Shown here piece by piece: positions 2,914 through 58,509 of a stretch of 64,000 nucleotides of DNA. How positions within the stretch are numbered: the stretch's first letter is position 1; each line of letters starts with the position of its first letter. Under the pieces are notes generated by a model, which was not told the DNA's origin, did not search any database, and saw only the letters and a program-made list of their open reading frames with translations. The translations under genes were made by a program, and so were the position numbers. Origin of the DNA: Patescibacteria group bacterium (GTDB taxonomy: Bacteria; Patescibacteriota; Minisyncoccia; Minisyncoccales; JAHCRE01); contig JAHCRF010000001.1 in NCBI GenBank assembly GCA_020148055.1, positions 71,257 to 135,256 on the forward strand. Reading direction: 5' to 3'.

Positions 2914-4488
2914 ATGAAGGATTATTATCTTAAAGTTAACAAGGCTTCTGATCTTAAAGATAAACAAGAAAGAATAATTTTTCGTATTTTAGAGATTTTG
3001 CCTGGTTTTTTAAGCTGGGCAATTTTACTTTTAGTTATCATTTTATCTTGGCAAAAGCCGATTTTGGTAGCTGTCTTTATCATCTTTTTTGTAATTTTTT
3101 GGTTATTTAGAACAATCTACTTTTCATTTCATCTCCGGGCTGGCTATCAAAAAATGAAAGAACACGAAAATATTGATTGGCTAGCAAAGCTTAATCAACT
3201 GAGAGATAGAAACTGGAAAGATATCTATCATTTAATAGTCTTACCAATGTATAAAGAGCCTTTAGGAATTATTAAGGAAACCTTTAAAGCCTTAGAAAAT
3301 ACTGATTATCCTAAAGATAAAATGATTGTAGTTTTAGCTTGTGAGGAAAGAGCTGGAGAGGAAGCAAAAGAAACTGCCAGGATTATTGAAAAAGAATTTG
3401 CCAATAAATTTTTCAAATTTTTAATCACTTTTCATCCTCCAGATTTACCCGGAGAGATTGCTGCTAAAAGCTCAAATGAGACCTTTGGGGTAAAAAAAGC
3501 CAAGGAATTGATTATTGATCCATTTAAAATTCCTTATCAAAATATAATTTTTTCTTCTTTAGATGCCGATACTAAAATTTTTCCAAGATATTTTAGTTGT
3601 CTTACTTATCATTATTTAACCTCAAAAAACCCAACTAGAACTAGTTTTCAACCCATCCCTCTTTTTATTAATAATATCTGGCAGGCCCCTGGTATTTCTC
3701 GAGTTTTTTCCTTTTCCTCAACCTTTTGGCATACTATTAATCAGCAAAGGCCAGAAAAATTGATTACTTTCTCTTCCCATTCAATGAGTTTTTTAGCCTT
3801 AGTTGATACTGGATTCAAACAGACCAATGTAGTTTCTGATGACTCCAGAATTTTTTGGCAATGTTTTTTAAAATACAACGGAGACTATAAGGTTCAGCCT
3901 ATTTTTTATCCGGTTTCAATGGATGCTAATGTTTCTCGGAGTTTCTTTAGAACCTTAATCAATATCTACAAACAACAAAGAAGGTGGGCTTATGGAGTAG
4001 GGGATATCCCTTATTTTCTTTTTGGTTTTTTTAAAAATAAAAAAATCCCAATCTCAAAAAAATTTTCTTTAGGATTTGAGTTAATTGAAGGACACTTGTC
4101 TTGGGCTACTGCCTCGTTTTTAATTTTTCTATTAGGCTGGGTACCTTTAGTTTTAGGAGGAGAGGAGTTTAACCAGACCCTAATTTCTTATAATTTACCC
4201 TTGATAACCAGAAATATTTTAACTTTAGCAATGGTAGGCCTAACCGGATCTATCTATTTTAGTCTTAATTTACTCCCTCCTAAACCCCCTGAATATGGTC
4301 GGCTTAAATATTTATTTTTTGCTTTTCAATGGTTTTTAATTCCCTTAACAATGATATTTTTTGTTTCCCTACCAGCTTTAGATGCTCAGACGAGATTGAT
4401 GTTAGGGAAATATATGGGTTTTTGGCCGACTGAGAAAATTCGAAGGAATCTTACAAATTACGAATTTCCTCGAATTACGAATTCGTAA
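2914..4488 (+). CDS. membrane-embedded processive family-2 glycosyltransferase (cellulose/chitin-synthase-like)
   Basis: Start moved to ATG 2914, downstream of the tRNA. Has N- and C-terminal TM segments, VLPMYKEP, SSLDADT and QQRRW (QxxRW) motifs. Confidence 0.7.
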   Translation: MKDYYLKVNKASDLKDKQERIIFRILEILPGFLSWAILLLVIILSWQKPILVAVFIIFFVIFWLFRTIYFSFHLRAGYQKMKEHENIDWLAKLNQLRDRNWKDIYHLIVLPMYKEPLGIIKETFKALENTDYPKDKMIVVLACEERAGEEAKETARIIEKEFANKFFKFLITFHPPDLPGEIAAKSSNETFGVKKAKELIIDPFKIPYQNIIFSSLDADTKIFPRYFSCLTYHYLTSKNPTRTSFQPIPLFINNIWQAPGISRVFSFSSTFWHTINQQRPEKLITFSSHSMSFLALVDTGFKQTNVVSDDSRIFWQCFLKYNGDYKVQPIFYPVSMDANVSRSFFRTLINIYKQQRRWAYGVGDIPYFLFGFFKNKKIPISKKFSLGFELIEGHLSWATASFLIFLLGWVPLVLGGEEFNQTLISYNLPLITRNILTLAMVGLTGSIYFSLNLLPPKPPEYGRLKYLFFAFQWFLIPLTMIFFVSLPALDAQTRLMLGKYMGFWPTEKIRRNLTNYEFPRITNS

Positions 4489-7084: not shown

Positions 7085-7115
7085 ATTCCTAATTCTGGAT
7101 TCATAATTCTTAATT
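7081..7115. repeat. five-heptamer half-element (ttttatt cctaatt ctggatt cataatt cttaatt)
   Basis: Direct reading. Same unit family as the right arm at 37476-37510. Abuts the terminator hairpin. Confidence 0.7.
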
Positions 7116-7119
7116 TTAA

Positions 7120-23338: not shown

Positions 23339-24427
23339 ATGACCCTTCTTACCCATCTTAAAAGATTAGATTGGATTTTAATTATTACTGTATTTTTGTT
23401 AGTTGTGATTGGTCTTTTCTCTATTTATAGTTCTTCTTTAGCTAAGAGAGATTTTTTGAACTTGAAAAAACAAATTATTTTTTTGATAATTTCATTTTTT
23501 TTGATGATATTTTTTAGTTTTTTTGATTGGCGGATCTTTCGAGAAAATCCCTATTTAATTTTATTTCTTTATTTTTTTTGTTTGGCCAGTTTAATTGGTC
23601 TATTTTTTTTCGCTCCAGAGATTAAAGGGGCGAAGGGCTGGTATAAATTAGGCCCTGTTTCAATTGATCCAATCGAATTTACCAAAATTATTTTAATAAT
23701 TTTATTAGCTAAATATTTTTCAATGAGGCATGTCGAGATGTATCGAATAGGCCACATTTTGATTTCCGGATTTTATATGATAATTCCAGCTATCTTGATT
23801 TTCTTTCAGCCGGATTTAGGATCAGTTCTAATCTTAGTTATCTTATGGGTTGGAATTTTAATTATTTCTGGAATAAAAATTCGCCATTTTTTGATTCTCA
23901 GTCTTTTTTCTCTTTTAATTCTAATTTTAATTTGGTCTTTTTTCCTCAAGGATTATCAAAGACAAAGGATCATCAGCTTTTTCCAGCCGAGAATTGAGCC
24001 TTTAGGAACTAGCTGGAGCGGAATTCAGGCAAAAATTGCCATAGGAGCAGGTTCGATCTTTGGGCAAGGTATTGGTAAAGGTTCCCAAGTTCAACTGGGT
24101 TTTCTACCCGAACCTCAGACCGATTTTATTTTTTCAGCCATTGCTGAAGAAATGGGAATGCTTGGGATTGGATCTGCGTTTTTTTTATTTTCTTTTTTAG
24201 TTTGGCGAATTTTGAAAATTGCAATGTCTTCTCAATCTAATTTTTCTCGTCTTTTCGCCTCGGGTTTAGCTATTCTTTTAGTTTCTCAAATTTTCATTCA
24301 TATTGGCATGAATCTTGGAATTCTACCAATCATCGGTATTCCTTTACCCCTAATAAGCTATGGGGGAAGTAGCTTGATTAGTAATTTTATCAGTTTGGGT
24401 ATCTTGCAGAGTTTTAAGACTTATTAA
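23339..24427 (+). CDS. SEDS-family peptidoglycan polymerase (FtsW/RodA)
   Basis: About 10 TM segments. Has QPDLGS, PEPQTDFIFS and PLPLISYGGSS motifs. Confidence 0.85.
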   Translation: MTLLTHLKRLDWILIITVFLLVVIGLFSIYSSSLAKRDFLNLKKQIIFLIISFFLMIFFSFFDWRIFRENPYLILFLYFFCLASLIGLFFFAPEIKGAKGWYKLGPVSIDPIEFTKIILIILLAKYFSMRHVEMYRIGHILISGFYMIIPAILIFFQPDLGSVLILVILWVGILIISGIKIRHFLILSLFSLLILILIWSFFLKDYQRQRIISFFQPRIEPLGTSWSGIQAKIAIGAGSIFGQGIGKGSQVQLGFLPEPQTDFIFSAIAEEMGMLGIGSAFFLFSFLVWRILKIAMSSQSNFSRLFASGLAILLVSQIFIHIGMNLGILPIIGIPLPLISYGGSSLISNFISLGILQSFKTY

Positions 24428-24462: not shown

Positions 24463-24487
24463 TTAATTAATTCTTAATTTTTTGATG

Positions 24488-24526
24488 GTTCGGCTTTGCT
24501 CACGATTAATCCTGAGCCTGCCGAAC
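24488..24526 (+). other. GC-rich nested hairpin in the 5' leader (gttcggc..gctca-N10-tgagc..gccgaac)
   Basis: 7-bp and 5-bp stems read directly. Track ORF 24482 translates through it, but the likely start is 24542. Confidence 0.55.
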
Positions 24527-24541
24527 GGATTGATTTTTAAT

Positions 24542-26866
24542 ATGAAGATTTCATTCAAAACTCGATCTATTAAAATAGCCAATCTTTGCCAAAAAATTAG
24601 CAAGATCATAATTTACTCTTTAACATTTCTATTGCCAATCTTTTTTTTACCTTTGACCTTAGATGTTCTTGATTTTAATAAACAAATATTGCTAATTATT
24701 TTGGTTTCTCTTGCTCTTTTGTTTTGGCTAGTAAAGATTTTAATCTCAGATAAAGTTGAGTTTAATTTTAGTTTTCTGAACGTCCCGGTTTTAATTTTTT
24801 TCCTAATCTACGGCTTTTCGACAATTTTTTCTCAATGGTCCTACGGGAGTTTTTGGGGTTGGCCGCTCAATATTAGTCAAGGTTTTTTAACCTTACTTTA
24901 TTTTCTGGTTTTCTATGTTTTGATTGCAAATATTTTTACTAAAAAAAGAGATATCTTCCGGCTTCTCTTTCTTTTTGTTATCTCCGGAGCTTTAGTGGCT
25001 TTATTCTCAATCTTCCAAATTTTTGGTAAATTCCTTCTGCCTTGGAATTTTGCTAAACTTACTTCTTTTAATACTATCGGAACCCTGAATTCCCTTTCAA
25101 TATTTATAGCTTTTCTTTTACCTTTAGCGATTTCCCTAACCTTTTTAGCTGAAAGACTAATTAAGCGAATATTAATAATTTCTCTCTTTATTTTCTTATT
25201 TTTGCTTATTTTGGTTAATTTTTGGACAGCCTGGATAGTTTTAATTTCAGGTACTTTAATTCTTTTTATTTTTGGTATTTTCAATCTTAGAGAAACCGGG
25301 CAGATTGATTTAATCTGGCTGCCAATGCTCCTTTTAATTATTAGCCTTTTCTTTTTAGTCTTTAGAATTTCTTTAGTTCAAATTCCAATTGAAATCTCAC
25401 CAACTCAGAGAACAGAATTGGGTATTGCCAAAAGTGTTTTGTCTAAAAATTTCTTTCTGGGAACAGGTCCTACGACCTTTATTTTTAGTTATTTAAAATT
25501 TAAGCCAATTGAGATAAACCAGACAGTTTTTTGGAACATTAGATTTACCAGTGGGGCGTCGGAAGTCCTTGATAAATTAATAACCACTGGAGTTTTAGGG
25601 ATTTCTGCTCTATTTTTTATTTTTGGAGTATTTTTTTGGTTAGGCTTGAGATATTTAAAGGGAAAAACCGCTTTTTCGAAAGGGGACAAAGATTCACTAC
25701 TTCCTTTAGGAGTTTTTTCCAGTTTCTTCGGTTTGGTTTTTAGCCAATTTCTTTATTCAGCCAATCTTACTTGGCTATTTTTCTTTTGGTTGTTATTGGG
25801 AGTTTTTATTGCCCTTTTTCCTAAAATAAAAAGCCGGGTTTTTAAATCTCTTCCTTTAGTTCTGGTAGGTCTTTGTGTGTTAATTTTTCTCTTAGGAATA
25901 GGACTTTCTTTTGTTGGGTTTGGGCATCATCTTGCTGAGATGAAATATCTTCAGGGGTTGAAAGCTTGGGAGCAGGGTCAGAGTGGACAAGCAATTGATT
26001 ATTTAAAAAAGGCAATTGATTTAAATCCTGGTTTAGATAGTTATTGGCGAGATCTCTCTCAGCTTTATTTAGTTAGACTAAATGAGATTTTACCCAAAGA
26101 AGATTTACCACCAGAGGCGATTGGAAATTTAATCAATAACCTTTTAGATTCTTCAAGAAAGGCGACTGAGCTTTCTCCAAAAAATGTGAGTAATTGGAAT
26201 GTCAGGGCATTTATCTATCAAAATTTGGCTGGTCTAGTTAAAGGAGCCGAAGATTGGGCTATTACTAATTATCAAAAAGCTGCAGACCTTGAGCCCAAAA
26301 ATCCCTATATTTTTACTGAGATTGGCAAAATTTATCTTAGTAAAGCAGATATTTCTGCCCAATTGGAAAATGAGGAGGAAATGACTAAAAATTTAGCTCA
26401 GGCCCAAGAGAATTTTCAAAAAGCTCTGGAATTAAAATCAGATTACGCCCCTGCCCATTTCCAAATCGCCATGATCTATGTTAGAGAGGGTAAAACAAGA
26501 GAGGCGATTGAGAAGTTAGAAGCAACAAAATTAGTTACTCCCTTTAATGACATCGGTTTGGCTTTCCAGCTTGGACTTTTATATTACAATGATAATCAGT
26601 CGAACAAAGCTTTGACCGAGTTTGAACGAGCAGTTAGTATTGATGAGAATTATTCCAATGCTCGTTATTTCTTAGGATTAATTCATGACCGGCAAGGAAA
26701 CCAAGATAAAGCCATTGAGCAATTTGAAAGAATTGAAGAATTAAATCCTGATAATCTGGCAGTGAAGAGGGTTTTAGCCAATTTAAGAGAGGGTTTACCG
26801 GCCCTAGAAGGAATTCAACCCCCAGAGCTACCAATTGAAGAAAGACCATCGGAGATAGAAAAATAA
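24542..26866 (+). CDS. O-antigen-ligase-like (Wzy_C) polytopic membrane protein fused to C-terminal TPR repeats
   Basis: More than 10 TM segments, followed by repeated TPR-like units (AIDYLKKAIDLNP, NYQKAADLEPKNP, FQKALELKSDYAPAH...). Confidence 0.7.
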   Translation: MKISFKTRSIKIANLCQKISKIIIYSLTFLLPIFFLPLTLDVLDFNKQILLIILVSLALLFWLVKILISDKVEFNFSFLNVPVLIFFLIYGFSTIFSQWSYGSFWGWPLNISQGFLTLLYFLVFYVLIANIFTKKRDIFRLLFLFVISGALVALFSIFQIFGKFLLPWNFAKLTSFNTIGTLNSLSIFIAFLLPLAISLTFLAERLIKRILIISLFIFLFLLILVNFWTAWIVLISGTLILFIFGIFNLRETGQIDLIWLPMLLLIISLFFLVFRISLVQIPIEISPTQRTELGIAKSVLSKNFFLGTGPTTFIFSYLKFKPIEINQTVFWNIRFTSGASEVLDKLITTGVLGISALFFIFGVFFWLGLRYLKGKTAFSKGDKDSLLPLGVFSSFFGLVFSQFLYSANLTWLFFFWLLLGVFIALFPKIKSRVFKSLPLVLVGLCVLIFLLGIGLSFVGFGHHLAEMKYLQGLKAWEQGQSGQAIDYLKKAIDLNPGLDSYWRDLSQLYLVRLNEILPKEDLPPEAIGNLINNLLDSSRKATELSPKNVSNWNVRAFIYQNLAGLVKGAEDWAITNYQKAADLEPKNPYIFTEIGKIYLSKADISAQLENEEEMTKNLAQAQENFQKALELKSDYAPAHFQIAMIYVREGKTREAIEKLEATKLVTPFNDIGLAFQLGLLYYNDNQSNKALTEFERAVSIDENYSNARYFLGLIHDRQGNQDKAIEQFERIEELNPDNLAVKRVLANLREGLPALEGIQPPELPIEERPSEIEK

Positions 26867-26876
26867 AAAGTTTAAA

Positions 26877-26903
26877 GTGGGGGCTTGACCCCCCACCTAT
26901 TTT
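26877..26903 (+). terminator. intrinsic terminator (gtggggg-cttgac-cccccac + ctatttt)
   Basis: 7-bp GC stem plus a T-rich tail, immediately after the stop at 26866. Confidence 0.7.
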
Positions 26904-26918
26904 GCCGTTTAATCTACT

Positions 26919-26987
26919 GGCGGCACACTAAACGAATAGTTTGTCCTCCTAGGGGAGGACTGGGCTATTCGCCCACCGTGTGCCGCC
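26919..26987 (+). other. 69-nt three-helix GC-rich hairpin (candidate small RNA or intergenic palindromic element)
   Basis: ggcggcacac/gtgtgccgcc (10 bp), cgaatag/ctattcg (7 bp), gtcctcc/ggaggac (7 bp), loop tagg. All perfect Watson-Crick. Confidence 0.6.
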
Positions 26988-27056
26988 TAAGTTAAACACA
27001 CTTTTTCGTCGTATTTCTATAAAAAGATGAGTTGAGAAACAAAATAGGTGGGAGGG

Positions 27057-27084
27057 TTGACAAATCTTTAATTAGGAGTAAAAT
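27057..27084 (+). promoter_or_regulatory. rpoB promoter: GGTGGGAGGG-TTGACA-16-TAAAAT
   Basis: Motifs read directly. The same module occurs at 51830-51857. Confidence 0.55.
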
Positions 27085-27177
27085 TAAAAATATCCAATTA
27101 AATTTTTTCTCATTTTTTTTAATTTTAATTTGCCCTAAGAATAAAATAGAGGGTGATTTTAAATTTAATTCCTGAAA

Positions 27178-30100
27178 ATGAAGTTTAAAGATTTTTCAAA
27201 ATCAAAAATTTCCCTACCCTTACCTTATTTACTCTCGATTCAAAGAGAAAGCTGGCAGAGATTTTGGGAAAGAGATTTAAAAGAACTCTTTTCAGAAATA
27301 TCGCCCATTCAAGATTATACCGGAAAGGAGTTAGAACTCTGGTTTTTAGACTATAAATTGGATGAGCCCAAATATAAAACTACCTTGGAAGCTAAGGAGA
27401 ATAATGATTCTTATGAAGCAGCCTTGCGGGCTAGAGTAAGATTAGTCAATCTCAAAACAAAAGAAATTAAAGAACAAGAAGTCTTTTTAACCGATTTCCC
27501 CTTAATGACCAAGAGAGGAACTTTTATTGTTAACGGGATAGAAAGAGTAGTTATTTCTCAGCTTATTCGTTCCCCCGGCGCCTTTTTTACTTCTCAGATA
27601 ATTAGAGGTGAAACTCATTTTGGAGCAAAAATTATTCCTAATCGGGGAGCTTGGCTTGAATTTGGAACTGAAGCCTCCGGTTTTATTGGAGTTAAGATTG
27701 ACCGAAAGAGAAAAGTAGCAGCTACTACTTTATTGAGAGCTTTCGGAATTGATCAAGATGAAAAAATTCTAGAGATCTTCCAAGATATTGATAACAATCC
27801 AGAAATTAACTATATTTCAGAGACAATAAAAAGAGACCCTACTAAAAATCAAGCCGAAGCCTTAATTGAAGTCTATCAGCATCTAAGACCAGGAGATTTA
27901 ACAACCGCTGAGACAGCTAGAGAGTTGATTGAAAACATGTTTTTTAATTTTGAAAGATATGATTTGTCAAAAGTAGGGAGATGGCGAATGTGGCAGAGAC
28001 TACCGGAATTGAAAAAATCCAAAATCCAAAAGGGGCCCACGAAAGTGGGAGGGCGGTCGGGACGCGAGGCCTTCCCGCGGAACGGGAGGCCCCGTCCTTG
28101 GGTGGGTTGGAGTCCAAAATCCAAAACTAAAAAGCCAAAGCTAGAAGAAGGAATCACCAGGTCAGATAGGGTTTTGCATCCCGAAGATATTGTGGCTGTT
28201 TTGAGAGAGATTATTAGATTAAATAATGACCCCGGGGGAAAACCCGATCAGATTGATCATTTGGGCAATCGGCGAGTAAGAACTTTAAATGAACTTTTAC
28301 AAAACCGATTAAGGGTAGGTTTAATGAGAATGGCCAGGATTATCAAAGACCGAATGGCTACTTTAGATATTTCCATCTTAACCCCGGTTCAATTGATTAA
28401 TTCCCGACCATTTATAGCGATAGTTAGGGAATTCTTTACCTCTTCTCAGCTTGCTCAGTTTATGGACAATGAGAATCCTCTTGCTGAATTAGAGCATAAA
28501 AGAAGACTATCAGCTACCGGACCAGGTGGTTTAACTCGAGAAAGAGCTGGGTTTGAGGTTAGAGATGTTCAACCATCCCATTATGGAAGGATTTGCCCTA
28601 TCCAAACTCCTGAAGGACCAAATGTTGGGTTAATTAATCATTTAGCTGGTTTTGCCCGAGTTAATCCTTATGGTTTTATTGAAACTCCTTATTTCAAGGT
28701 GAAAAATGGAAGGGTTACTTCAGAAATTTGTTATCTTAATGCCTATGAAGAAGAAAAGTATAATATTGCCCATGGAGGAGTACCAATCGATGAGAAAGGC
28801 AAAATTACCTCCAAAAAGGTTGAAGCTAGAGTAAAGGGTGAACCAGGAATAGTTGGTAGAGAAAAAGTTGATTTTTTCGACATCTCTCCTGCCCAATCAA
28901 TTTCTATCGCTACTTCTTGCATTCCTTTTTTACAAAATGATGATGCCAACCGAGCCTTAATGGGATCAAATATGCAAAGACAAGCTGTTCCTCTTCTCAG
29001 ACCAGGGGTTCCCCTAGTTATTACTGGAGCAGAAGAGAAGGTAGCTAGAGATTCTGGCCAGGAGATAATTGCCGAGGAAGAAGGGGTTGTTACCGAAGTC
29101 GATGCTAATCATATTAAAATTAGGGGTAAAAAGGGAGAAAAGAAATATCCTCTGCAAACTTTTATTCAGACCAATCAATTCACTTGTTTTCATCAAAGCC
29201 CCTTAGTTAAAAAAGGGAAGGTTGTTAAAAAAGGAGACATTTTAACTGATGGTGGAGGAATTTCTCAAGAACATTTAGCTTTAGGCCGAAATATTTTGGT
29301 TGCTTTTATGTCCTGGCGTGGAGGAACTTTTGAAGATGCAATTTTGATTTCTGAAAGATTGGTTAGAGATGATGCTTATACTTCAATTCATATTGAGGAT
29401 TTTAGTTGTGATGTTCGAGAAACCAAATTGGGACCGGAGATTACAACCTGTGATATTCCTAACGTTTCAGAAGAAAAATTGAGGAATTTAGATGAAGAAG
29501 GTTTAGTCAGAATTGGGGCTGAAGTTGGCCCAAATGATATCTTGGTTGGGAAGATTTCTCCAAAAGGAGAAGTTGATTTAACTGCTGAGGAAAGATTATT
29601 GAGAGCTATTTTTGGAGAGAAAGCTAGAGAAGTTAAAGATACCTCTTTATTAATGGAGCATGGTAAACAGGGGAGGGTAATTAATGTGAAGATTTTTTCT
29701 AGAGAATCGGGTCATAGACTTGACCCCGGAGTGATAAAAAGAATTGATGTTAAAGTAGCGGAGATTAGAAAAACTCAAGCCGGTGATAAATTAGCTGGTC
29801 GCCATGGGAATAAGGGAGTGATTTCTAAGGTTTTACCAATTGAAGATATGCCATTTTTAGAAGATGGAACTCCAGTCGATATTATTTTAAATCCTCTAAG
29901 CATTGCCTCGCGAATGAATATTGGTCAAGTTCTGGAAGCTCATTTAGGAAAAGCGGCCAAAAAATTGGGCTACATTGCTATTTCTCCGGCCTTAGCTGGA
30001 GTGACTGAGGAAGAGATTAAAGAAGAGCTTAGGAAGGCTGGATTACCAGAAGATGGAAAAGTCGCTCTTTATGATGGCCGAACCGGCCTACCTTTTTCCA

Positions 30101-30480
30101 AAAAAATTACTGTTGGCTATGTTTATATGATGAAATTAATTCATATGGTTACCGATAAAATCCACGCCAGATCAATTGGACCTTATTCTCTAATTACTCA
30201 ACAGCCCTTAGGAGGAAAGGCCCAATTTGGAGGTCAAAGATTCGGAGAAATGGAAGTTTGGGCTTTAGAAGGACATGGAGCAGCCCATAGTTTACAGGAA
30301 ATGTTAACTATTAAATCCGATGATGTCCAAGGTCGGGCAGCTGCTTATCAGGCCATCTTAAAAGGAGAGCCAATCAGAAATCCTAATGTTCCCGCGTCTT
30401 TAAATTTACTAATCAATGAATTAAAGGCTCTTGGGCTAAATGTTGAAATAAAAGAAAACCCCAAAGAACAAGAATCCTGA
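27178..30480 (+). CDS. rpoB: DNA-directed RNA polymerase beta subunit
   Basis: 1100 aa with canonical beta motifs (GRHGNKGV, FGEMEVWALE). Carries a 123-nt repeat insert at 28014-28136. Confidence 0.97.
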   Translation: MKFKDFSKSKISLPLPYLLSIQRESWQRFWERDLKELFSEISPIQDYTGKELELWFLDYKLDEPKYKTTLEAKENNDSYEAALRARVRLVNLKTKEIKEQEVFLTDFPLMTKRGTFIVNGIERVVISQLIRSPGAFFTSQIIRGETHFGAKIIPNRGAWLEFGTEASGFIGVKIDRKRKVAATTLLRAFGIDQDEKILEIFQDIDNNPEINYISETIKRDPTKNQAEALIEVYQHLRPGDLTTAETARELIENMFFNFERYDLSKVGRWRMWQRLPELKKSKIQKGPTKVGGRSGREAFPRNGRPRPWVGWSPKSKTKKPKLEEGITRSDRVLHPEDIVAVLREIIRLNNDPGGKPDQIDHLGNRRVRTLNELLQNRLRVGLMRMARIIKDRMATLDISILTPVQLINSRPFIAIVREFFTSSQLAQFMDNENPLAELEHKRRLSATGPGGLTRERAGFEVRDVQPSHYGRICPIQTPEGPNVGLINHLAGFARVNPYGFIETPYFKVKNGRVTSEICYLNAYEEEKYNIAHGGVPIDEKGKITSKKVEARVKGEPGIVGREKVDFFDISPAQSISIATSCIPFLQNDDANRALMGSNMQRQAVPLLRPGVPLVITGAEEKVARDSGQEIIAEEEGVVTEVDANHIKIRGKKGEKKYPLQTFIQTNQFTCFHQSPLVKKGKVVKKGDILTDGGGISQEHLALGRNILVAFMSWRGGTFEDAILISERLVRDDAYTSIHIEDFSCDVRETKLGPEITTCDIPNVSEEKLRNLDEEGLVRIGAEVGPNDILVGKISPKGEVDLTAEERLLRAIFGEKAREVKDTSLLMEHGKQGRVINVKIFSRESGHRLDPGVIKRIDVKVAEIRKTQAGDKLAGRHGNKGVISKVLPIEDMPFLEDGTPVDIILNPLSIASRMNIGQVLEAHLGKAAKKLGYIAISPALAGVTEEEIKEELRKAGLPEDGKVALYDGRTGLPFSKKITVGYVYMMKLIHMVTDKIHARSIGPYSLITQQPLGGKAQFGGQRFGEMEVWALEGHGAAHSLQEMLTIKSDDVQGRAAAYQAILKGEPIRNPNVPASLNLLINELKALGLNVEIKENPKEQES
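28014..28136 (+). repeat. nested insert in rpoB: 'aaaatcc' heptamer array interrupted by element A
   Basis: aaaatcc aaaatcc aaaa[84-nt A]aaaatcc aaaacta aaaagcc. The total of 123 nt equals 41 codons. Confidence 0.8.
28032..28115 (+). repeat. GC-rich hairpin element family A, copy 2 (in frame in rpoB, sense)
   Basis: 84 nt, about 87% identical to 1463-1547. Encodes ..GPTKVGGRSGREAFPRNGRPRPWVGWSP... Confidence 0.9.
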
Positions 30481-30560: not shown

Positions 30561-33500
30561 ATGAGAGTAGCTGATCTTAAATCAATAAAAATTCGCTTAG
30601 CCTCACCAGAAGAAATTTTATCTTGGTCTCATGGCGAGATTACTAAACCTGAAACCATCAATTATCGAACTCAAAGAGCAGAAAAGGACGGTCTTTTTTG
30701 TGAAAGAATTTTCGGGCCAACTAAAGATTATCAATGCTATTGCGGTAAATATAAAAGAATTCGTTATAAAGGGATAACTTGCGATCGCTGTGGGGTAGAA
30801 GTGACAAAATCTTCGGTCAGACGAGAGAGGATGGGTCATATCAAATTGGCCTCACCGGTTTCTCATATTTGGTTCTTAAGAGGAGTACCGTCGCGAATGG
30901 GAATAATCTTAAATGTTTCTTTACCCAAATTGGAAAGGGTAATTTATTTTGCTGCTTACATTATCACAGAAGTTATAGAGGAGGCTAAGAAAAGAGTTTT
31001 AAAAGAGATTGAGAAAGAATACAGGTCAAAGGTAAAAACTCAAAAAGCTTCCCCAGCCCCACCCGCCACCCATCAAAGGAAAAAAACATCTAAGGCAAAA
31101 ACAAAAAGTAAAAATAAAATAAAACCCCAAGACCTGAAAGTAGCCAGAGATAAAGCTAAAGAGGAAGTGTTAGCTTTGAAACCTTTGAAAATTCTTTCTG
31201 AGGTGGAATATCACAATCTTTCTTTTAAATATGGAGAGGTTTTTACAGCGGGAACAGGAGCAGAAACTCTAAGGAAAATTTTTGAGAAGATAGATTTTAA
31301 AAAAGAAATTACCAAATTAAAAAAAGAAATTGAAAAAGCCTCACCGGTGAGTCGAAGAAAAATTTTAAGGAGATTGAAACTCTTCCAGTCGATGTCTAAC
31401 GCAAAACTGAGACCAGAGTGGATGTTTCTGAATGTTTTGCCGATTTTACCCCCAGATTTAAGACCAATGGTTCAGTTAGATGGTGGTCGTTATGCTTCCT
31501 CTGATTTAAATGATCTTTATAGAAGAGTAATTAATCGGAACAACCGTTTGAAATATCTTTTAGAAATTGCAGCTCCTGAAGTTATTGTTAGAAATGAGAA
31601 AAGAATGTTGCAGGAAGCAGTTGATGCTCTGATCGATAATGGAATGAGAAAGGGAGTAATTACCAGGGCGACCACTGGAGGAAGAAGGCTTTTGAAATCT
31701 TTAGCTGATATGTTGAAAGGAAAACAAGGGAGATTCAGGCAAAATCTTTTAGGTAAAAGAGTTGATTATTCGGGCAGATCGGTGATTGTCGTTGGACCAA
31801 AATTAAGACTTCATCAGTGTGGTCTTCCTAAAAAGATGGCCTTGGAATTATTTAAACCTTTTGTTATTAAAAGAATTTTAGATAAAGAATTGGCTTACAA
31901 TGTAAGGGCAGCTTCGAGGTTGATTGAGCAGGAAACCGAGGAAGTTTGGGCAATCTTAGAAGAAGTGGTTAAAGATAAATTGGTTTTATTAAATCGGGCT
32001 CCAACCTTACATCGATTAGGAATCCAGGCTTTCCAACTAATATTAATTGAGGGAGAAGCAATTCAAGTCCATCCTTTAGTTTGTAAAGCCTTTAATGCCG
32101 ATTTTGATGGGGATCAAATGGCTATCCATTTACCTTTATCAACTGAGGCCCAAAAAGAGGCTAAAGAAATAATGTTATCTACCTTAAATCTTTTGAAACC
32201 AGCCACTGGTATTCCAATTGTAACTCCTACTCAAGATATTATCCTTGGCTGCTATTTTTTAACCAAAATTAAAGAGAAAGCTAAAGGGGAAGGGAAGATC
32301 TTTGGAAATTTCCAAGAGACCGTTTTAGCTTATGAGTTTGGAGAGGTAGACTTAAAAGCCGGAATCAAGGTTAAAATAAAGAATTCGGAATTTTTAGAGA
32401 CTTCGGTTGGGCGAATTATTTTTAATGAGACTTTACCCGCAGGCTTCCGGTTTATTAATGAAGTGATAAATTCAAAGAAATTAGAAAAAGTGATAAGTGA
32501 AATTATTGAAAATTACGGAATAGAAAGATCGGTTGCTACCCTGGATAAAATTAAAGATTTGGGATTTGAATATGCCACTATTTCAGGTTTATCCTGGGGA
32601 ATGGATGATTTAGATATTCCTAAAGAAAAAGAAGAATTAATTAAAGGGGCAGAAACAGAAATAGAGATGATCGAAGAACACTTCAAAAAAGGGTTACTGA
32701 CTGAGGAAGAAAAATATCTAAAGACAATTGAAATTTGGCAAAAAATAAAATCAAAAATTGAAAAAATTGTTCCGAAGACATTACCATCTGAGAGTTCAGC
32801 ATTTTCAATTGTTGATTCCGGAGCGAAAGGCTCCTGGATCCAACCTGTGCAGATGTGTGGAATGAAGGGTTTAGTGATTAATCCAATGGGACAGATTATT
32901 GAACTTCCAATCAAAAGTTCTTATAAAGAAGGATTTAATGTTTTGGAATATTTCATTTCTACCCATGGAGCAAGAAAAGGAACAGTTGATACGGCTCTAC
33001 GTACCTCTACTGCTGGCTACTTAACCAGAAGACTTATTGATGTCGCCCATGAGGCAGTAATAACTGAGGAAGATTGTCATGACGAGAAAGGGATTGAAAT
33101 ATCCAGAGGGGATGCTGAAGAAATTGGCCAGAATTTTATCTTCAAGATTTTAGGGAGAGTAGTTATAGAAGATGTCAGAAATCCCGCCAGAGGCGAGGCT
33201 CGCCAAGGGCGGCAAAAAGCAAAAAGCAAAATTATCAAAAAAGGAGAAATAATTGATTGGAAAGCGGCTGAGGAAATAATTAAAGCTGGGGTTGAAAAAG
33301 TTCGAGTTCGTTCTCCCTTAACTTGTAAGTCAACCAGAGGAATTTGCCAGAAATGCTATGGCTGGGATTTAGGCTCAAATCAATTAGTTAAATTAGGGGA
33401 AGCGATGGGGATTGTTGCTGCCCAGGCGATTGGCGAGCCGGGAACTCAATTAACGATGAGAACTTTTCATACCGGTGGCGTGGCTGGAGGAGAAGATATA

Positions 33501-34205
33501 ACATTTGGATTACCGAGGGTTGAGGAAATTTTCGAAGCCAGAACATTAACTGAGAAAGGAGCAATTTCTCAAGCTGATGGAAAAGTGACTGAAATAACAA
33601 AAGAAAGGGTGATTAAAGTGAAACCTAAAAAGGGAAATCCTCGGCCAAAGAAAAAAGAGATTTTAGAATACAAAATTTCTCCCCGAATGGCTATTTGGGT
33701 TAAACCGGGCCAAGAGGTTAAGAAAGGTCAACAGCTCTCAGAAGGAAGATTGGATCTGAAGGAGCTATTTAAGCTTAGAGATAAAGAAGAAACCCAGAGA
33801 TATATTATTAAAGAAATTCAGAGAATCTATGTTTCCCAGGGAGCAATTATTCATGATAAGCATCTTGAGGTAATTGTTCGCCAAATGTTTTCCCGGCTAA
33901 GAATCCAAGAAGCAGGTGACAGCAATTTTGTTCCCGGCCAAATTATTGAAAGATCAAGATTTTTAGAAGGAAATAAAGTTTTAAGAAAGGAAAAGAAAAA
34001 GCAGGCTAAAGGAACGCCCATTTTGCTCGGAATGTCCCGAGTGGCTTTAACCGCGGATTCATTTTTATCAGCTGCTTCTTTTCAGGAGACTACTCGAGTT
34101 CTAATTAAAGCTGCTATCGAGGGGAAAGAAGATAGACTTGAAGGTTTAAAGGAAAATGTGATTATTGGAAAGTTGATTCCAGCCGGTACCGGTTTTCAAA
34201 AATAG
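30561..34205 (+). CDS. rpoC: DNA-directed RNA polymerase beta' subunit
   Basis: 1214 aa. Has the zinc-binding CYCGKY..CDRCG and the NADFDGDQM catalytic motif. Carries element C and a hairpin plus array insert. Confidence 0.97.
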   Translation: MRVADLKSIKIRLASPEEILSWSHGEITKPETINYRTQRAEKDGLFCERIFGPTKDYQCYCGKYKRIRYKGITCDRCGVEVTKSSVRRERMGHIKLASPVSHIWFLRGVPSRMGIILNVSLPKLERVIYFAAYIITEVIEEAKKRVLKEIEKEYRSKVKTQKASPAPPATHQRKKTSKAKTKSKNKIKPQDLKVARDKAKEEVLALKPLKILSEVEYHNLSFKYGEVFTAGTGAETLRKIFEKIDFKKEITKLKKEIEKASPVSRRKILRRLKLFQSMSNAKLRPEWMFLNVLPILPPDLRPMVQLDGGRYASSDLNDLYRRVINRNNRLKYLLEIAAPEVIVRNEKRMLQEAVDALIDNGMRKGVITRATTGGRRLLKSLADMLKGKQGRFRQNLLGKRVDYSGRSVIVVGPKLRLHQCGLPKKMALELFKPFVIKRILDKELAYNVRAASRLIEQETEEVWAILEEVVKDKLVLLNRAPTLHRLGIQAFQLILIEGEAIQVHPLVCKAFNADFDGDQMAIHLPLSTEAQKEAKEIMLSTLNLLKPATGIPIVTPTQDIILGCYFLTKIKEKAKGEGKIFGNFQETVLAYEFGEVDLKAGIKVKIKNSEFLETSVGRIIFNETLPAGFRFINEVINSKKLEKVISEIIENYGIERSVATLDKIKDLGFEYATISGLSWGMDDLDIPKEKEELIKGAETEIEMIEEHFKKGLLTEEEKYLKTIEIWQKIKSKIEKIVPKTLPSESSAFSIVDSGAKGSWIQPVQMCGMKGLVINPMGQIIELPIKSSYKEGFNVLEYFISTHGARKGTVDTALRTSTAGYLTRRLIDVAHEAVITEEDCHDEKGIEISRGDAEEIGQNFIFKILGRVVIEDVRNPARGEARQGRQKAKSKIIKKGEIIDWKAAEEIIKAGVEKVRVRSPLTCKSTRGICQKCYGWDLGSNQLVKLGEAMGIVAAQAIGEPGTQLTMRTFHTGGVAGGEDITFGLPRVEEIFEARTLTEKGAISQADGKVTEITKERVIKVKPKKGNPRPKKKEILEYKISPRMAIWVKPGQEVKKGQQLSEGRLDLKELFKLRDKEETQRYIIKEIQRIYVSQGAIIHDKHLEVIVRQMFSRLRIQEAGDSNFVPGQIIERSRFLEGNKVLRKEKKKQAKGTPILLGMSRVALTADSFLSAASFQETTRVLIKAAIEGKEDRLEGLKENVIIGKLIPAGTGFQK
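31037..31101 (+). repeat. element family C, copy 1 (C-rich 65-mer), in frame in rpoC
   Basis: Identical over 65 nt to 49629-49693. Encodes [21 protein letters not shown]. Confidence 0.95.
33184..33247 (+). repeat. GC nested hairpin (ccgcc-aga-ggcga-ggc-tcgcc-aag-ggcgg) followed by a 'caaaaag' heptamer array, in frame in rpoC
   Basis: Direct reading. Encodes ..PARGEARQGRQKAKSKIIKKG... The array family matches the uvrC array at 47531-47565 in reverse complement. Confidence 0.75.
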
Positions 34206-48803: not shown

Positions 48804-48864
48804 CCAGATTTGTTAGATAGAGGGTTTGTTGAAATTCTTTGAAATTTTGGGTATAATAACTTTT

Positions 48865-49698
48865 ATGAAAGAAAAAGTTATTAAAATCCGTGGAGCCAAA
48901 GTTCACAATTTAAAAAATATTAATCTTGATATCCCAAAAAACAAACTGGTAGTGATTACTGGGATTTCAGGTTCAGGAAAATCATCTTTGGCCTTTGATA
49001 CATTATATGCTGAAGGACAAAGAAGATATGTTGAGAGTTTATCTGCTTATGCAAGGCAATTTTTAGGAGTGATGGATAAACCAGAGGTTGACAAAATTGA
49101 AGGAATTTCACCTGCAATTTCAATTGACCAAAGAAAAGCAGCTCACAATCCACGCTCCACTGTTGGAACCATTACTGAAATTGCAGATTACTTAAGATTA
49201 TTATTCGCTAGGATAGGGAAGCCCCATTGTCCAAAATGTAAAAAAACAGTTAGCCGTCAGACCATCGATCAAATTACTGATCAGGTTTTGAAATTGCCAA
49301 AAAGAACAGAAATTTCGATTTTGGGTCCAGTTGTTAGAGGTCGAAAAGGAGAGCATCGGGGAATTTTAGAAGAGATTCAAAGATCAGGATTTATCCGAGT
49401 GAGAATTGATGGGATTTTACACCGAATTGAAGACTACAACCCACCCACCATGTCCTCCCACTCGCTTCGCGAGCGGGCCCCTACTCTAGGGCTGAAGTTA
49501 GACCGAAAGAAAAAACACAATATTGAGGTTGTTGTTGATAGATTAATAATTGATAAAGACTTGGATAGATCAAGGTTGGTTGATTCTCTGGAAACAGGCC
49601 TAAAGTTGGGAAAAGGAATAGTAATAGTAACTCAAAAAGCTTCCCCAGCCCCACCCGCCACCCATCAAAGGAAAAAAACATCTAAGGCAAAAATCTAA
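48865..49698 (+). CDS. uvrA: excinuclease ABC subunit A, N-terminal fragment; the frame ends at TAA inside or just after repeat element C
   Basis: [47 protein letters not shown]... TATAAT (48852-48857) lies 7 nt upstream of the ATG. Confidence 0.85.
49435..49492 (+). repeat. GC-rich insert D in uvrA (hairpin cccactcgc-ttc-gcgagcggg at 49457-49477)
   Basis: GC island encoding ..[19 protein letters not shown].. between conserved RIDG and [13 protein letters not shown]. Shares gcgggcccct with the reverse complement of element A copy 1. Confidence 0.65.
49629..49693 (+). repeat. element family C, copy 2; coincides with the frame break in uvrA
   Basis: Identical over 65 nt to 31037-31101. Confidence 0.95.
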
Positions 49699-51799
49699 TG
49701 ACTTAATATTCAGCGAGTATTTTGCCTGCGAGGAATGTGGGATTTCTCTTCCAGAATTAGAGCCTCGGCTTTTTTCATTTAATTCTCCTTATGGGGCCTG
49801 TTCAGCCTGCCAGGGGCTTGGAGAAAAATTAGAAATCGATCCAAAATCAGTTTTACCCAATCCAAATTTATCGATTTCTGAAGGAGCAATTTTTCCCTGG
49901 GCTCATGCCTCTCATAAAGTTGGCAGGCAGGGTTATTTTTGGTGGCAGTTCACCCACTTGGCAGAAAAGTATAACTTCTCCTTAGATGTCCCGGTTAAAG
50001 AACTTCCCAAAAAGATCATTGATTTAATTTTATATGGTAATGGCCAATTTGAGGGAGTAGTTCCCAATTTGGAAAGGAGATATCACGAAACTGATTCAGA
50101 ATATACCCGTAAGGAAATTGAGCAGTATATGATAAAAAAGAGATGTGAAAAATGTCAGGGAAAAAGATTAAGGCCTGAAGCCTTGGCAGTGACTGTGATA
50201 AAAAAATCAATAAATGAAATCGTTGAAATTTCAATAGAAAAAGAAAAAAGATTTTTCGAGAATTTACTACTAAATCCTAAATCCTATAACCTAAATCCTA
50301 ATGACTACAAAATTGCCCAACCAATTGTTAAGGAAATCATTAAGCGATTACAATTTCTAATTGATGTTGGTTTAGATTATTTAACCTTAGATCGGAAGAC
50401 AGAAACTTTATCGGCTGGGGAAGAGCAGAGAATAAGATTGGCTACTCAGTTAGGTTCTCAATTAACCGGAGTTTTATACATTTTGGATGAACCTTCAATT
50501 GGTCTTCATGCTAGAGATCAGGGTAGGCTCATCGAAACCTTAAATAAGTTAAGGGATTTGGGCAATACCGTTATTGTTGTTGAACATGATCCTCAGACAA
50601 TCATGGCTGCTGACTGGGTGATCGATATAGGGCCAGGAGCGGGGAAACACGGTGGCAAAATTATATTTAAGGGAACACCAAAAGAATTACTGAGATCAAA
50701 GACACTTACTGGAGATTATTTAGCTGGAAGAAAGAAAGTTGAGATAAAAGCAACCAGCAACAAGCAACCTGCCTCGCCGACAGGCGGGCAAGCAACCAAG
50801 AATAATTATCTAATAATAAAGAAAGCGGCTGAGCACAATCTCAAAAATATTGATGTTAAAATTCCTTTGGGAAAATTTGTCTGCATTACTGGAGTTTCGG
50901 GTTCGGGCAAAAGTTCTCTAATGAATGATATTTTAGCTAAAGCCCTGATGAGGAAATTTTACAAAGCCAAAGAGGAACCGGGAGAATTTAAAGAATTAAT
51001 TGGAACAGAATTTTTGGATAAAGTGGTTTTAGTGGATCAGTCTCCAATTGGCCGAACCCCCAGATCAAATCCGGCAACTTATACCGGAGTTTTTTCTTAT
51101 ATCAGAGATCTTTTTTCAAAAACCAGAGAGGCCAGAATTAGGGGGTATCGGCCAGGACGTTTCAGTTTTAATGTTAAGGGAGGAAGATGTGAAGTATGTC
51201 AAGGTCAGGGTCAAATCAAAATCGAGATGTACTTTTTGCCTGATATTTATATTGAGTGCCAGGAATGTAAGGGGAAAAGGTTCAACAAAGAAACCTTGGC
51301 TATTGAATATAAAGGAAAGAATATTGCTGAGGTTTTAGAAATGACAGTTGAAGAAGCCCTAAAATTTTTCATAAATATTCCCGGTATCTATCATAAATTA
51401 AAAACTTTGTATGATGTTGGTTTAGGCTATATTCAATTGGGCCAGCCAGCCCCTTCTTTGTCTGGAGGGGAGGCCCAGAGAGTGAAATTAGCTACTGAAC
51501 TTTCTAAAAGGGCTACGGGAAAGACTTTATATATTTTAGATGAACCAACCACTGGTTTGCATCCCGATGATATTAAAAAATTAGTTTGGGTTTTGAGAAA
51601 TCTGGTAGATAAAGGAAATACGGTTTTATTAACTGAACATAACATCGATATCATCCGCAATTCAGATTGGATAATAGATTTAGGACCGGAAGGTGGAGAT
51701 GAAGGCGGCGATATTATTGCAATAGGTACTCCATTTGAAATTACAAAAAACAAAAAAAGTTATACCGGACACTATTTAAAACAAGTTTTTAAATCTTGA
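49631..51799 (+). CDS. uvrA: excinuclease ABC subunit A, remainder of the gene in the +1 frame (open from 49631; UvrA homology resumes about 49700)
   Basis: [41 protein letters not shown]... and a second ABC module, [10 protein letters not shown]...[12 protein letters not shown]...[12 protein letters not shown]. The track only lists it from 49958. Confidence 0.85.
50271..50305. repeat. five-heptamer array (taaatcc taaatcc tataacc taaatcc taatgac) inside uvrA
   Basis: Direct reading. Encodes ..[15 protein letters not shown]... Confidence 0.85.
50750..50807 (+). repeat. element family B, copy 2, in frame in uvrA
   Basis: gcaaccagcaacaagcaacctgcctcgccgacaggcgggcaagcaaccaagaataatt. Encodes [17 protein letters not shown]. 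Confidence 0.9.
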
Positions 51800-51829
51800 C
51801 CCCTACCACCAATTTTATTGGTGTGAGGG

Positions 51830-51857
51830 TTGACAAATGCTCTATATTTTCTAAAAT
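51830..51857 (+). promoter_or_regulatory. groESL promoter: GGTGTGAGGG-TTGACA-16-TAAAAT
   Basis: Same module as upstream of rpoB. The -10 is bracketed by the 9-bp inverted repeat tctatattt (51841-51849) / aaatataga (51860-51868). Confidence 0.55.
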
Positions 51858-51869
51858 CTAAATATAGAA

Positions 51870-51896
51870 TTAGCAATTAAAGATTAAAACTGCTAA
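51870..51896 (+). promoter_or_regulatory. degenerate CIRCE-like inverted repeat (TTAGCAatt-N9-aacTGCTAA)
   Basis: The outer hexamers and the 9-nt spacer match the HrcA operator consensus TTAGCACTC-N9-GAGTGCTAA. The inner triplets do not. Confidence 0.5.
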
Positions 51897-55760: not shown

Positions 55761-56291
55761 ATGCTTTGCCCTATTTGTAAAAAAGAATTGGAAGAGTCCA
55801 TTTTTTATAATGTTGAAGTTGATTATTGCCCAAATTGTCTTGGTCTTTGGTTTGAGGAAAATGAATTAAGATTAGCCAAAGATGAAAAGGATGAAAATCT
55901 AAAATGGTTAGATATTGATTTATGGAAAGATGGGAAAAGATTTAAAATTTATCTTGGAGAGAGACTTTGTCCTTTCTGTAGACTTCCTCTTTATGAAGTT
56001 TATTATGGTGATTCTCGGGTGATTGTTGATTTTTGTAGTTTATGCCGGGGAATTTGGTTGGATAGAGGAGAATTCAAAAGAATAATTAAATATTTAAAAG
56101 AGAAAGCTGATTTTGAAATTTTAAATAATTACGCTAAAAACTTACTTGAAGAGGCGGCCGAAATCTTTATTGGCTCAGAGACTTTACGAGAAGAAATTTT
56201 AGATTTCCTAACCATTTTAAAACTTCTGAATTATAAATTTGCTACTCAATATCCAACAATAACAAGGATGATTTCTAATTTACCCCGTTAG
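55761..56291 (+). CDS. zinc-ribbon (zf-TFIIB-like) protein with two CxxC...CxxC units
   Basis: CPICK..CPNCLGLWFEENEL and CPFCR..CSLCRGIWLDRGEF. Confidence 0.6.
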   Translation: MLCPICKKELEESIFYNVEVDYCPNCLGLWFEENELRLAKDEKDENLKWLDIDLWKDGKRFKIYLGERLCPFCRLPLYEVYYGDSRVIVDFCSLCRGIWLDRGEFKRIIKYLKEKADFEILNNYAKNLLEEAAEIFIGSETLREEILDFLTILKLLNYKFATQYPTITRMISNLPR

Positions 56292-56362
56292 AAATGTAGG
56301 AGAAAATAGACTAAAGGGAATACCCCATTGGAATTTCTAACGGGGTTTACCTAAATAAAAAA

Positions 56363-58479: not shown

Positions 58480-58509
58480 TCCCGCACCTTGCTTGCAAGG
58501 TGCGGGATA
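58480..58509. terminator. strong GC hairpin (atcccgcaccttgc / gcaaggtgcgggat) between glgA-1 and the GH57 gene
   Basis: 14-nt perfect inverted arms. There is no clear T-run, so the terminator role is uncertain. Confidence 0.45.

Follow-up and report, generated by a model that had tools for sequence, protein, structure and literature searches.

Insertion-like palindromes at the -35 hexamers of the rpoBC and groES promoters of a patescibacterium

The region upstream of rpoB

The window, by which we mean the whole 64-kb stretch of DNA that was analysed, belongs to a patescibacterium of low GC content (35%) from the Paceibacteria/Nealsonbacteria group. It includes ftsW (23339-24427), a gene for a TPR protein (24482-26866), rpoB (27178-30480) and rpoC (30561-34205); the TPR gene is the upstream neighbour of rpoB, and the spacer between them is 311 nt long. 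The spacer has a 100% match in an independent metagenome assembly (ENA ERZ23498930, scaffold_1073), and its sole difference in a second sample (L172:295) is an extra T at the bulged U (26960/26961) of the hairpin described below, with the helices intact; it is therefore not an assembly artefact. For comparison we used 160 rpoB loci from relatives, which provide 128 non-redundant upstream regions, and we searched 69.5 kb of the genome itself (the window and 5.5 kb beyond it). Across RpoB residues 1-420 the best matches, taken from two public collections and a later search for close relatives, are about 70-76% identical.

The rpoBC promoter lies on the plus strand and has a TTGACA -35 hexamer (27057-27062) and a TAAAAT -10 hexamer (27079-27084) with a 16-nt spacer, matching 11 of 12 consensus positions, as was originally predicted. 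Promoters of the form TTGACA-16/17/18-TA(A/T)AAT are located 60-420 nt before rpoB in 119 of the 128 non-redundant relatives, with the consensus GGnC-TTGACA-AATTTTT..AAAA..-TAAAAT, and the recurrence of this form means that the promoter call is well supported. Downstream of the promoter, the rpoB 5' leader contains a hairpin followed by a U run (27130-27156 in the window), which is present at the same position in most of L001-L160, 20-90 nt before the rpoB start. Its usual form is (G)CCCUAA(A)-loop-(U)UUAGGG(U) and then UUUUU, and variants keep the pairing (CCCCAGA/UUUGGGG, CCCCA/UGGGG and CUCCC/GGGAG). The leader hairpin is weak in the window (UUGCCCU...AGGGUGA) and has no Rfam family match; it looks like either a conserved terminator in the rpoBC leader (an attenuator) or a hairpin to which a protein binds.

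A terminator and an enclosing inverted repeat had been predicted upstream of this promoter, and both are present. The intrinsic terminator of the TPR gene (26877-26903, plus strand; -13.8 kcal/mol) is formed by pairing of GTGGGGG (26877-26883) with CCCCCAC (26890-26896) around a CTTGAC loop, and the GC-rich stem is followed directly by a U tract (tail CTATTTT, CTATTTTG). Within the loop is a plus-strand TTGAC (26885-26889) that resembles one copy of a target-site duplication, and the first five bases of the -35 hexamer constitute the right copy. Between the two copies is a foldback element with terminal inverted repeats of 16 nt (26889-26904 and 27040-27055) that are 94% complementary and separated by 135 nt. 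On the plus strand, the left arm (26889-26904; CCCCCCACCTATTTTG) belongs to the type that we refer to as class A, and the right arm extends from 27040 to 27056 (CAAAATAGGTGGGAGGG); arms of the same types recur at other loci and in other genomes, the left-arm type in L091, L026, L115, L082 and the groES copy of the window. The interior is occupied by a GC-rich, three-helix hairpin of 69 nt (26919-26987) and an AT-rich, featureless remainder (26988-27039). The string that had been noted as common to rpoB and groES, GGTG(G/T)GAGGG-TTGACA, is present as GGTGKGAGGGTTGACA in exactly two copies in the window, at 27047 and 51820; a motif search gave no further match there, and about 0.3 would be expected even with three mismatches.

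We compared the site with those of the closest syntenic relatives, in which the same TPR gene is upstream. Four of these sites are empty (L099, L081, L084 and L089), and the TPR stop codon runs straight into the -35 hexamer; in L099 the stop codon is within it (TGA of TTGACA). The sites of L083, L082, L087, L091 and the window are filled, with a palindrome between two copies of (C)TTGAC, and in L082 there are two tandem hairpins. The leaders of L091 and L099 are almost identical, yet the first is filled and the second is empty. Insertion and loss are not separable at the rpoB site, since RpoB identity to the nearest relatives is only 73-75%. The empty sites suggest that the TPR terminator is a junction structure, in which native G-rich DNA would pair with the C-rich left end of the element and the left TTGAC would form the loop.

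Palindromes at groES and other sites

The sister element before groES (51796-51834, plus strand) consists of TTGAC (51796-51800), a palindrome of 29 nt (51801-51829) and a second TTGAC, which is also the beginning of the -35 hexamer (51830-51835) of the groES promoter; the -10 hexamer is at 51852-51857. The shared string is the 3' arm of this hairpin and the 5' arm follows cTTGAC, in agreement with the original prediction. The window reads aaatcTTGAC[CCCTACC..GAGGGTTGAC]AAATGCTC (in full aaatcTTGAC[CCCTACCACCAATTTTATTGGTGTGAGGGTTGAC]AAATGCTCTATATTTTCTAAAAT), and the site in L168 and L169, whose GroES is 94% identical, reads aatagcTTGACAAATGCTT (also given as aatagcTTGACAAATGCTTTATATTTTCTAAAAT) with near-identical sequence downstream. 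Relative to these two, the window has 34 extra bases, corresponding to the 29-nt palindrome and the second TTGAC. The palindrome is likewise absent from L167 and L170, and a read across an empty site would show ..TTGACAAAT.. Because the groES promoter and CIRCE operator of the closest relatives are almost identical to those of the window and the palindrome is absent from them, it is by parsimony probably an insertion in the lineage of the window. The CIRCE-like operator (51870-51896; TTAGCAATT-N9-AACTGCTAA) is positioned between the groES promoter and the start codon and is kept in L167-L169; in L167 the CIRCE-like spacer carries an insertion of roughly 50 nt with an ATCAA direct repeat on either side.

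The common string had been taken as a possible sign of a hairpin or UP-like module shared by the two promoters, that is, a transcription-factor palindrome or an upstream promoter element co-regulating rpoBC and groESL. The near-identical 16-nt string at both promoters could be read in this way, as could the frequency of G at -39 to -37 of the rpoB promoters of relatives (48%, 42% and 35%), but we consider such a module highly improbable and the comparisons among relatives speak against this part of the prediction. The closest relatives lack the palindrome at their groES promoter, and most rpoB promoters lack it too: of the 119 relatives in which an rpoB promoter is recognisable, only about 12-15 have a clear GC-capped palindrome adjoining the -35 hexamer. 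The spacing of the half-sites, 135 nt at rpoB and 3 nt at groES, does not allow for a single dimeric binding site, and groES already has the CIRCE-like operator downstream. A UP element would be conserved and A/T-rich at -40 to -60, whereas the sequence here is G-rich (GGTGGGAGGG) and absent from most orthologous promoters. Judging by these alignments, the shared string is most probably the right end of an inserted palindrome together with the duplicated TTGAC, and its two copies reflect common ancestry of sequence.

Arms of at least two sequence classes are common to several genomes. Class A ends (CCC..CACC(T/A)A.. / ..T(A/T)GGTG..GGG) are found at three sites in the window (rpoB, groES and 58481-58506) and in L026, L082, L091, L115, L098, L022, L005 and L141; class B ends (CCCCGTTAGAA/TTCTAACGGGG) are found at 56279-56350 in the window and in L098, L129, L023, L002, L101, L156, L011 and L126. 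The class B element of the window (CCCCGTTAGAAAT ... ATTTCTAACGGGG, plus strand) has TTTAC on both flanks and ends 12 nt before tRNA-Ser(gga). The site at 58481-58506 is a class A-like, perfect 12-bp GC-rich palindrome (CCCGCACCTTGC/GCAAGGTGCGGG, plus strand) between two genes; it has a predicted energy of -25.3 kcal/mol (z = -7.3), is flanked by ATAAAT and ATAAAA, and is without a U tract. There are four elements in the 64 kb of the window. Only the 13-17 nt at each end of the elements are conserved, and the interiors vary from 0 to 135 nt and are unrelated, among the copies of the window and even among copies arranged in tandem within L098 or L129. Both strands of the elements fold equally well, which is more in keeping with a palindrome at the DNA level than with an RNA made from one strand.

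The contexts of the elements are varied. They are located in the rpoB leader in L011 and L126, in the rpoB-rpoC spacer in L098, and in tandem arrays in L129 and L082. In L156 (3630-3679) a class B palindrome lies in frame inside rpoB, flanked by (GG)TAGA, where it adds about 20 residues (EEVDPVRGREGSQRAFASNG) that are absent in all other aligned relatives. Of the 31 non-redundant GC-capped inverted repeats, 13 are flanked by exact repeats of 5 nt or more in target-duplication register, compared with a mean of 1.6 and a maximum of 6 in 1000 permutations in a register-tolerant test; an earlier direct-repeat test with a fixed register gave no signal. The rpoB copy of the window contributes one more if a bulged A is allowed. 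The repeats vary by site, with TTGAC the commonest, followed by TTTAC, and with ATAAAT, GTTAA, CAAAG and GGTAGA also represented; since most are TTGAC or TTTAC, the repeat sequence is possibly part of the element. No transposase was identified among the 14 of 49 window ORFs scanned against Pfam, and a search for long elements in which these ends enclose a transposase found none. Class B arms matched two viral contigs, which is about the chance level among GC-clamped terminator stems.

An alternative explanation, which we regard as unlikely although far from negligible, is that these structures are immobile, promoter-coupled terminators or insulators that evolved in place, with a stem that adjoins or overlaps the -35 hexamer and a T-rich promoter spacer that acts as the terminator tail. 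A 2026 preprint describes widespread overlap of terminator stem-loops with -35 hexamers and T tracts just before the -10 hexamer (10.64898/2026.08.19.745784), and T makes up 62-84% at positions 3-7 of the spacer that follows the -35 in the relatives examined here. Pairing of UUGAC in RNA with GUUGA via G.U could draw the -35 into the stem, and every copy in the window comes directly after a stop codon. The geometry of promoter-coupled termination, within about 35 bp upstream of the next start, would fit the short form at groES, whose stem reaches to the -35; at rpoB about 155 nt separate the canonical terminator from the -35 downstream of it. In the short forms, however, 9-10 nt separate the U run from the stem, and the run is weak in the window (AATCTTTAAT); the TTGAC copies are unable to pair in GCTTGACA forms. 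Evolution in place also leaves unexplained the flanking direct repeats that vary by site, the identical 13-17-nt ends at unrelated loci in different genomes, the copies in coding regions, and the clean 34-nt difference at groES from the closest relatives.

We observed several additional repeats and inserts. A GC-rich repeat of ~82 nt is present inside rpoB (28032-28112) and, antisense, inside tsaD (1461-1545); the copies are 87% identical and are far more stable when folded on the plus strand (-46.6 and -44.9 versus -32.4 and -35.8 kcal/mol). The rpoB copy is in frame in a hypervariable linker with a 14-nt direct repeat (TCCAAAATCCAAAA; 28018-28031 and 28113-28126), a related copy in inverted orientation is present in the rpoB linkers of L106, L109 and L113, and the repeat, which has no Rfam match, is also at a contig end in another sample (L172). 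In L173 and L174 rpoB is called as two ORFs with the break at the hypervariable linker. L173 also has a 291-nt segment (3705-3995) between the leader hairpin and the rpoB start codon, with inverted repeats (CCCGCCAAAATTTTTA/TAAAAATTTAGGCGGG) and a 77-aa GIY-YIG ORF; these GC-capped repeats differ from class A and class B ends, and the segment is a lead for a transposase search only. A 65-nt exact repeat (AACTCAAAAAGCTTCCCCAGCCCCACCCGCC...) occurs in rpoC (31037-31101) and in uvrA (49629-49693); uvrA is present as two fragments (48826-49698 and 49958-51799), and the latter copy is located where the first of them ends. In L167-L170 uvrA is an intact, single gene of 980-1013 aa, and the repeat may be a mobile insert that splits uvrA or may reflect an assembly problem. 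Finally, AT-rich inverted repeats with GAATTATGAAT / ATTCATAATTC-like units are located in many spacers after genes (2695-2793, 7090-7119, 30481-60, 37402-60 and 52211-85 in the window, and L175:10408-81); they appear to be a second palindromic family and are possibly the usual terminators of this genome.

The 69-nt hairpin

The hairpin at 26919-26987, within the rpoB element, is species-specific and single copy in the 69.5 kb searched, and its fold is as predicted. In the minimum free energy structure, three helices with 10, 7 and 7 Watson-Crick pairs lead up to a UAGG loop, and RNAfold adds three G.U pairs (UUU/GGG) to the middle helix. Its GC content is 61%, against 35% for the window; its energy is -44.3 kcal/mol (z = -7.1), with 0 of 200 shuffles folding as well, and the region ranks second in stability among 90-nt segments taken at 10-nt steps through the 64 kb. 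The minus strand is equally stable (-45.7 kcal/mol, z = -7.9), so that folding offers no clue to which strand is transcribed. No second copy was detected in the window (searched with a 21-mer and up to three mismatches) or in the 5.5 kb beyond, and no homolog in the 160 related rpoB loci, the new close-relative loci, viral contigs or about 1.3 Mb from relatives. Rfam searches gave tRNAs only for the whole window at the gathering threshold, chance-level matches only for 26800-27250 at E <= 10, and zero matches at threshold for 15 related loci; SRP RNA, 6S RNA, ribozymes and tmRNA have no support from Rfam or ARAGORN.

We considered whether the 69-nt hairpin, or the whole 176-nt foldback (26885-27060), could be a small RNA gene, either 6S-like, in which an internal bubble would separate the closing stem from the apical stem, or processed from the 3' UTR of the TPR mRNA. 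Its extreme stability and perfect helices would be in keeping with an RNA, the sole population variant hits the bulged base and not the stem, and the whole foldback is reminiscent of 6S RNA in size and outline. A weak TTGACC-17-TTTAAT would give a start at about 26920, but this candidate was discarded because its -10 lacks the key A at position 2, and a promoter scan of both strands yielded no consensus promoter for the hairpin. Nor does it resemble an intrinsic terminator, as no U tract adjoins the stem and the first five-U run starts 16 nt past it. Together with the equal folding of both strands, the canonical terminator just upstream, the Rfam result even at E <= 10 and the lack of a homolog in relatives, in which several orthologous sites are empty, this makes a small RNA gene, 6S-like or processed, improbable. 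For 6S RNA in particular, a covariance-model match and conservation would be expected, and the region is absent or unrelated in relatives.

A further proposal was that the rpoB copy has been split by insertion of the 69-nt hairpin. The palindromic module as a whole does look inserted, and it is for the module that insertion is supported; for the hairpin itself insertion is only plausible. The arms at rpoB are 135 nt apart and the interior is far more structured (z = -6.0) than those of 12 other long elements (z = +1.25 to -2.9), as might be expected of an additional insert. These 12 rule out that interiors are generally structured foldbacks, and since they are not unusually structured the hairpin is not simply the tip of the foldback. 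On the other hand, the hairpin has no flanking direct repeat, second copy or homolog, and L091, with the same arms as the rpoB element, has a long (82 nt) but unrelated interior. Our simplest guess is a nested GC-rich palindromic insertion or a local expansion, because the genome carries other GC-rich repeats. Nothing indicates that the hairpin is a gene or regulator; when transcribed by read-through, its only effect would be to present a second structural barrier. The perfection of its stems in so AT-rich a genome points either to a very recent origin or to selection, and the insertion model does not account for it; the analysis narrows the options for the hairpin.

An insertion model and its relation to known systems

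The rpoB and groES hairpins look like small GC-capped palindromic insertions on the TTGAC of the -35 hexamer and not like a shared regulatory module. On balance we favour, with some reserve, the interpretation that a MITE/REP-like foldback element of class A inserted exactly at the -35 of a conserved sigma-70-type rpoBC promoter and duplicated TTGAC. This is consistent with the presence of the promoter across relatives, with the presence or absence of the palindrome at orthologous sites, with short flanking repeats that vary by site, and with the same types of ends at other loci and in other genomes; the unrelated interiors of tandem copies, unlike those of ordinary copy-and-paste MITEs, count against it. 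Small foldback elements would insert with a short duplication and a preference for TT(G/T)AC. The right TTGAC copy and the next A would rebuild TTGACA, so that the insertion would be tolerated, and the G-rich end of the element resembles the native GG(G)C context upstream of the -35. The left TTGAC copy could then become the loop of a new hairpin as native G-rich DNA pairs with the C-rich end of the element, and the TATTTT of the element would act as the U tract of an intrinsic terminator for the TPR gene. Such an element may be selfish but harmless, and possibly useful as a terminator or insulator before rpoBC and groESL.

More tentatively, and as a proposal that we think has less than an even chance of being correct in full, the Paceibacteria/Nealsonbacteria may carry a new kind of tiny mobile palindrome, from ~28 nt upwards, with conserved GC-capped ends of 13-17 nt, ~5-bp duplications and a preference for TT(G/T)AC. 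Through this preference they would insert repeatedly at -35 hexamers and rebuild them, provide terminators or insulators before highly expressed operons (rpoBC and groESL), and occasionally enter essential genes in frame, as in rpoB, and the 69-nt hairpin would be cargo or a further nested family. If this is true, very streamlined bacterial genomes tolerate active or recently active selfish palindromes, and the place at which these are tolerated is the -35 box of strong promoters, where the 5-bp duplication restores the promoter and supplies an upstream terminator. The -35 box would be a neutral landing pad, and mobile DNA a source of transcription punctuation. It would also be a caution against taking strings shared before promoters as regulatory modules, and would account for local GC spikes, contig breaks and odd rpoB insertions in the annotation of uncultured bacteria.

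Several known systems were set aside. Tn3-type elements have GGGG ends and a 5-bp duplication, and the polarity of the ends described here is opposite (5'-CCCC...GGGG-3'). Integron attC sites came into question because of GTTAGAA/TTCTAAC, but the core sites stand in reverse order and cassettes and an integrase are lacking; for DNA uptake sequences, the motif is too rare and is confined to inverted pairs.

The promoter-coupled terminators of Fletcher et al. (bioRxiv 10.64898/2026.08.19.745784) are dual-use DNA that evolved in place, with termination about 10 bp upstream of the start. The present hairpins are similar in that a stem-loop adjoins or overlaps the -35 between tandem genes and the spacer is T-rich, but they differ in that they look inserted and the U run is away from the stem.

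REPs and REPINs, which are mobilised by RAYT transposases, have proposed roles in termination and mRNA stability (PMC3116915, PMC3733652, PMC2817692), and the defining mark of REPs is a conserved GTAG or CGTC tetranucleotide that heads the palindrome (PMC3733652). Like these, the present elements are GC-rich palindromes of 20-40 nt after genes, with inverted pairs around a spacer, a larger hairpin and tandem clusters. Their arms start with CCCC instead of GTAG or CGTC, they have flanking direct repeats, which REPs lack, their copy number is apparently low, and no RAYT gene was seen in the examined part of the genome.

Rickettsia palindromic elements insert in frame into protein-coding genes. 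They resemble the present elements in being palindromic repeats in a reduced genome with in-frame insertion into coding genes (PMC1779305), for which the counterparts here are the class B element in rpoB of L156 and, separately, the ~82-nt GC-rich repeat in rpoB and tsaD of the window, and differ from them in sequence, size and host phylum and from the copy upstream of rpoB in that the latter is intergenic.

The organisation described here is likewise close to that of MITEs (miniature inverted-repeat transposable elements), such as the Correia elements of Neisseria. The present elements lack the full-length shared sequence of MITEs, as only ends of 13-17 nt are conserved; the smallest forms are 26-30 nt, and the apparent preferred target is the -35 hexamer (TTGAC/TTTAC). 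As in MITEs (features as given in PMC10969869 and PMC3184786), they are short, non-coding elements with terminal inverted repeats and short flanking direct repeats, there are both filled and empty orthologous sites, and TTGAC flanks the rpoB and groES elements in the manner of a target-site duplication. Like MITEs, they are intergenic, lie beside promoters and terminators, and would be able to supply or rebuild promoter and terminator signals.
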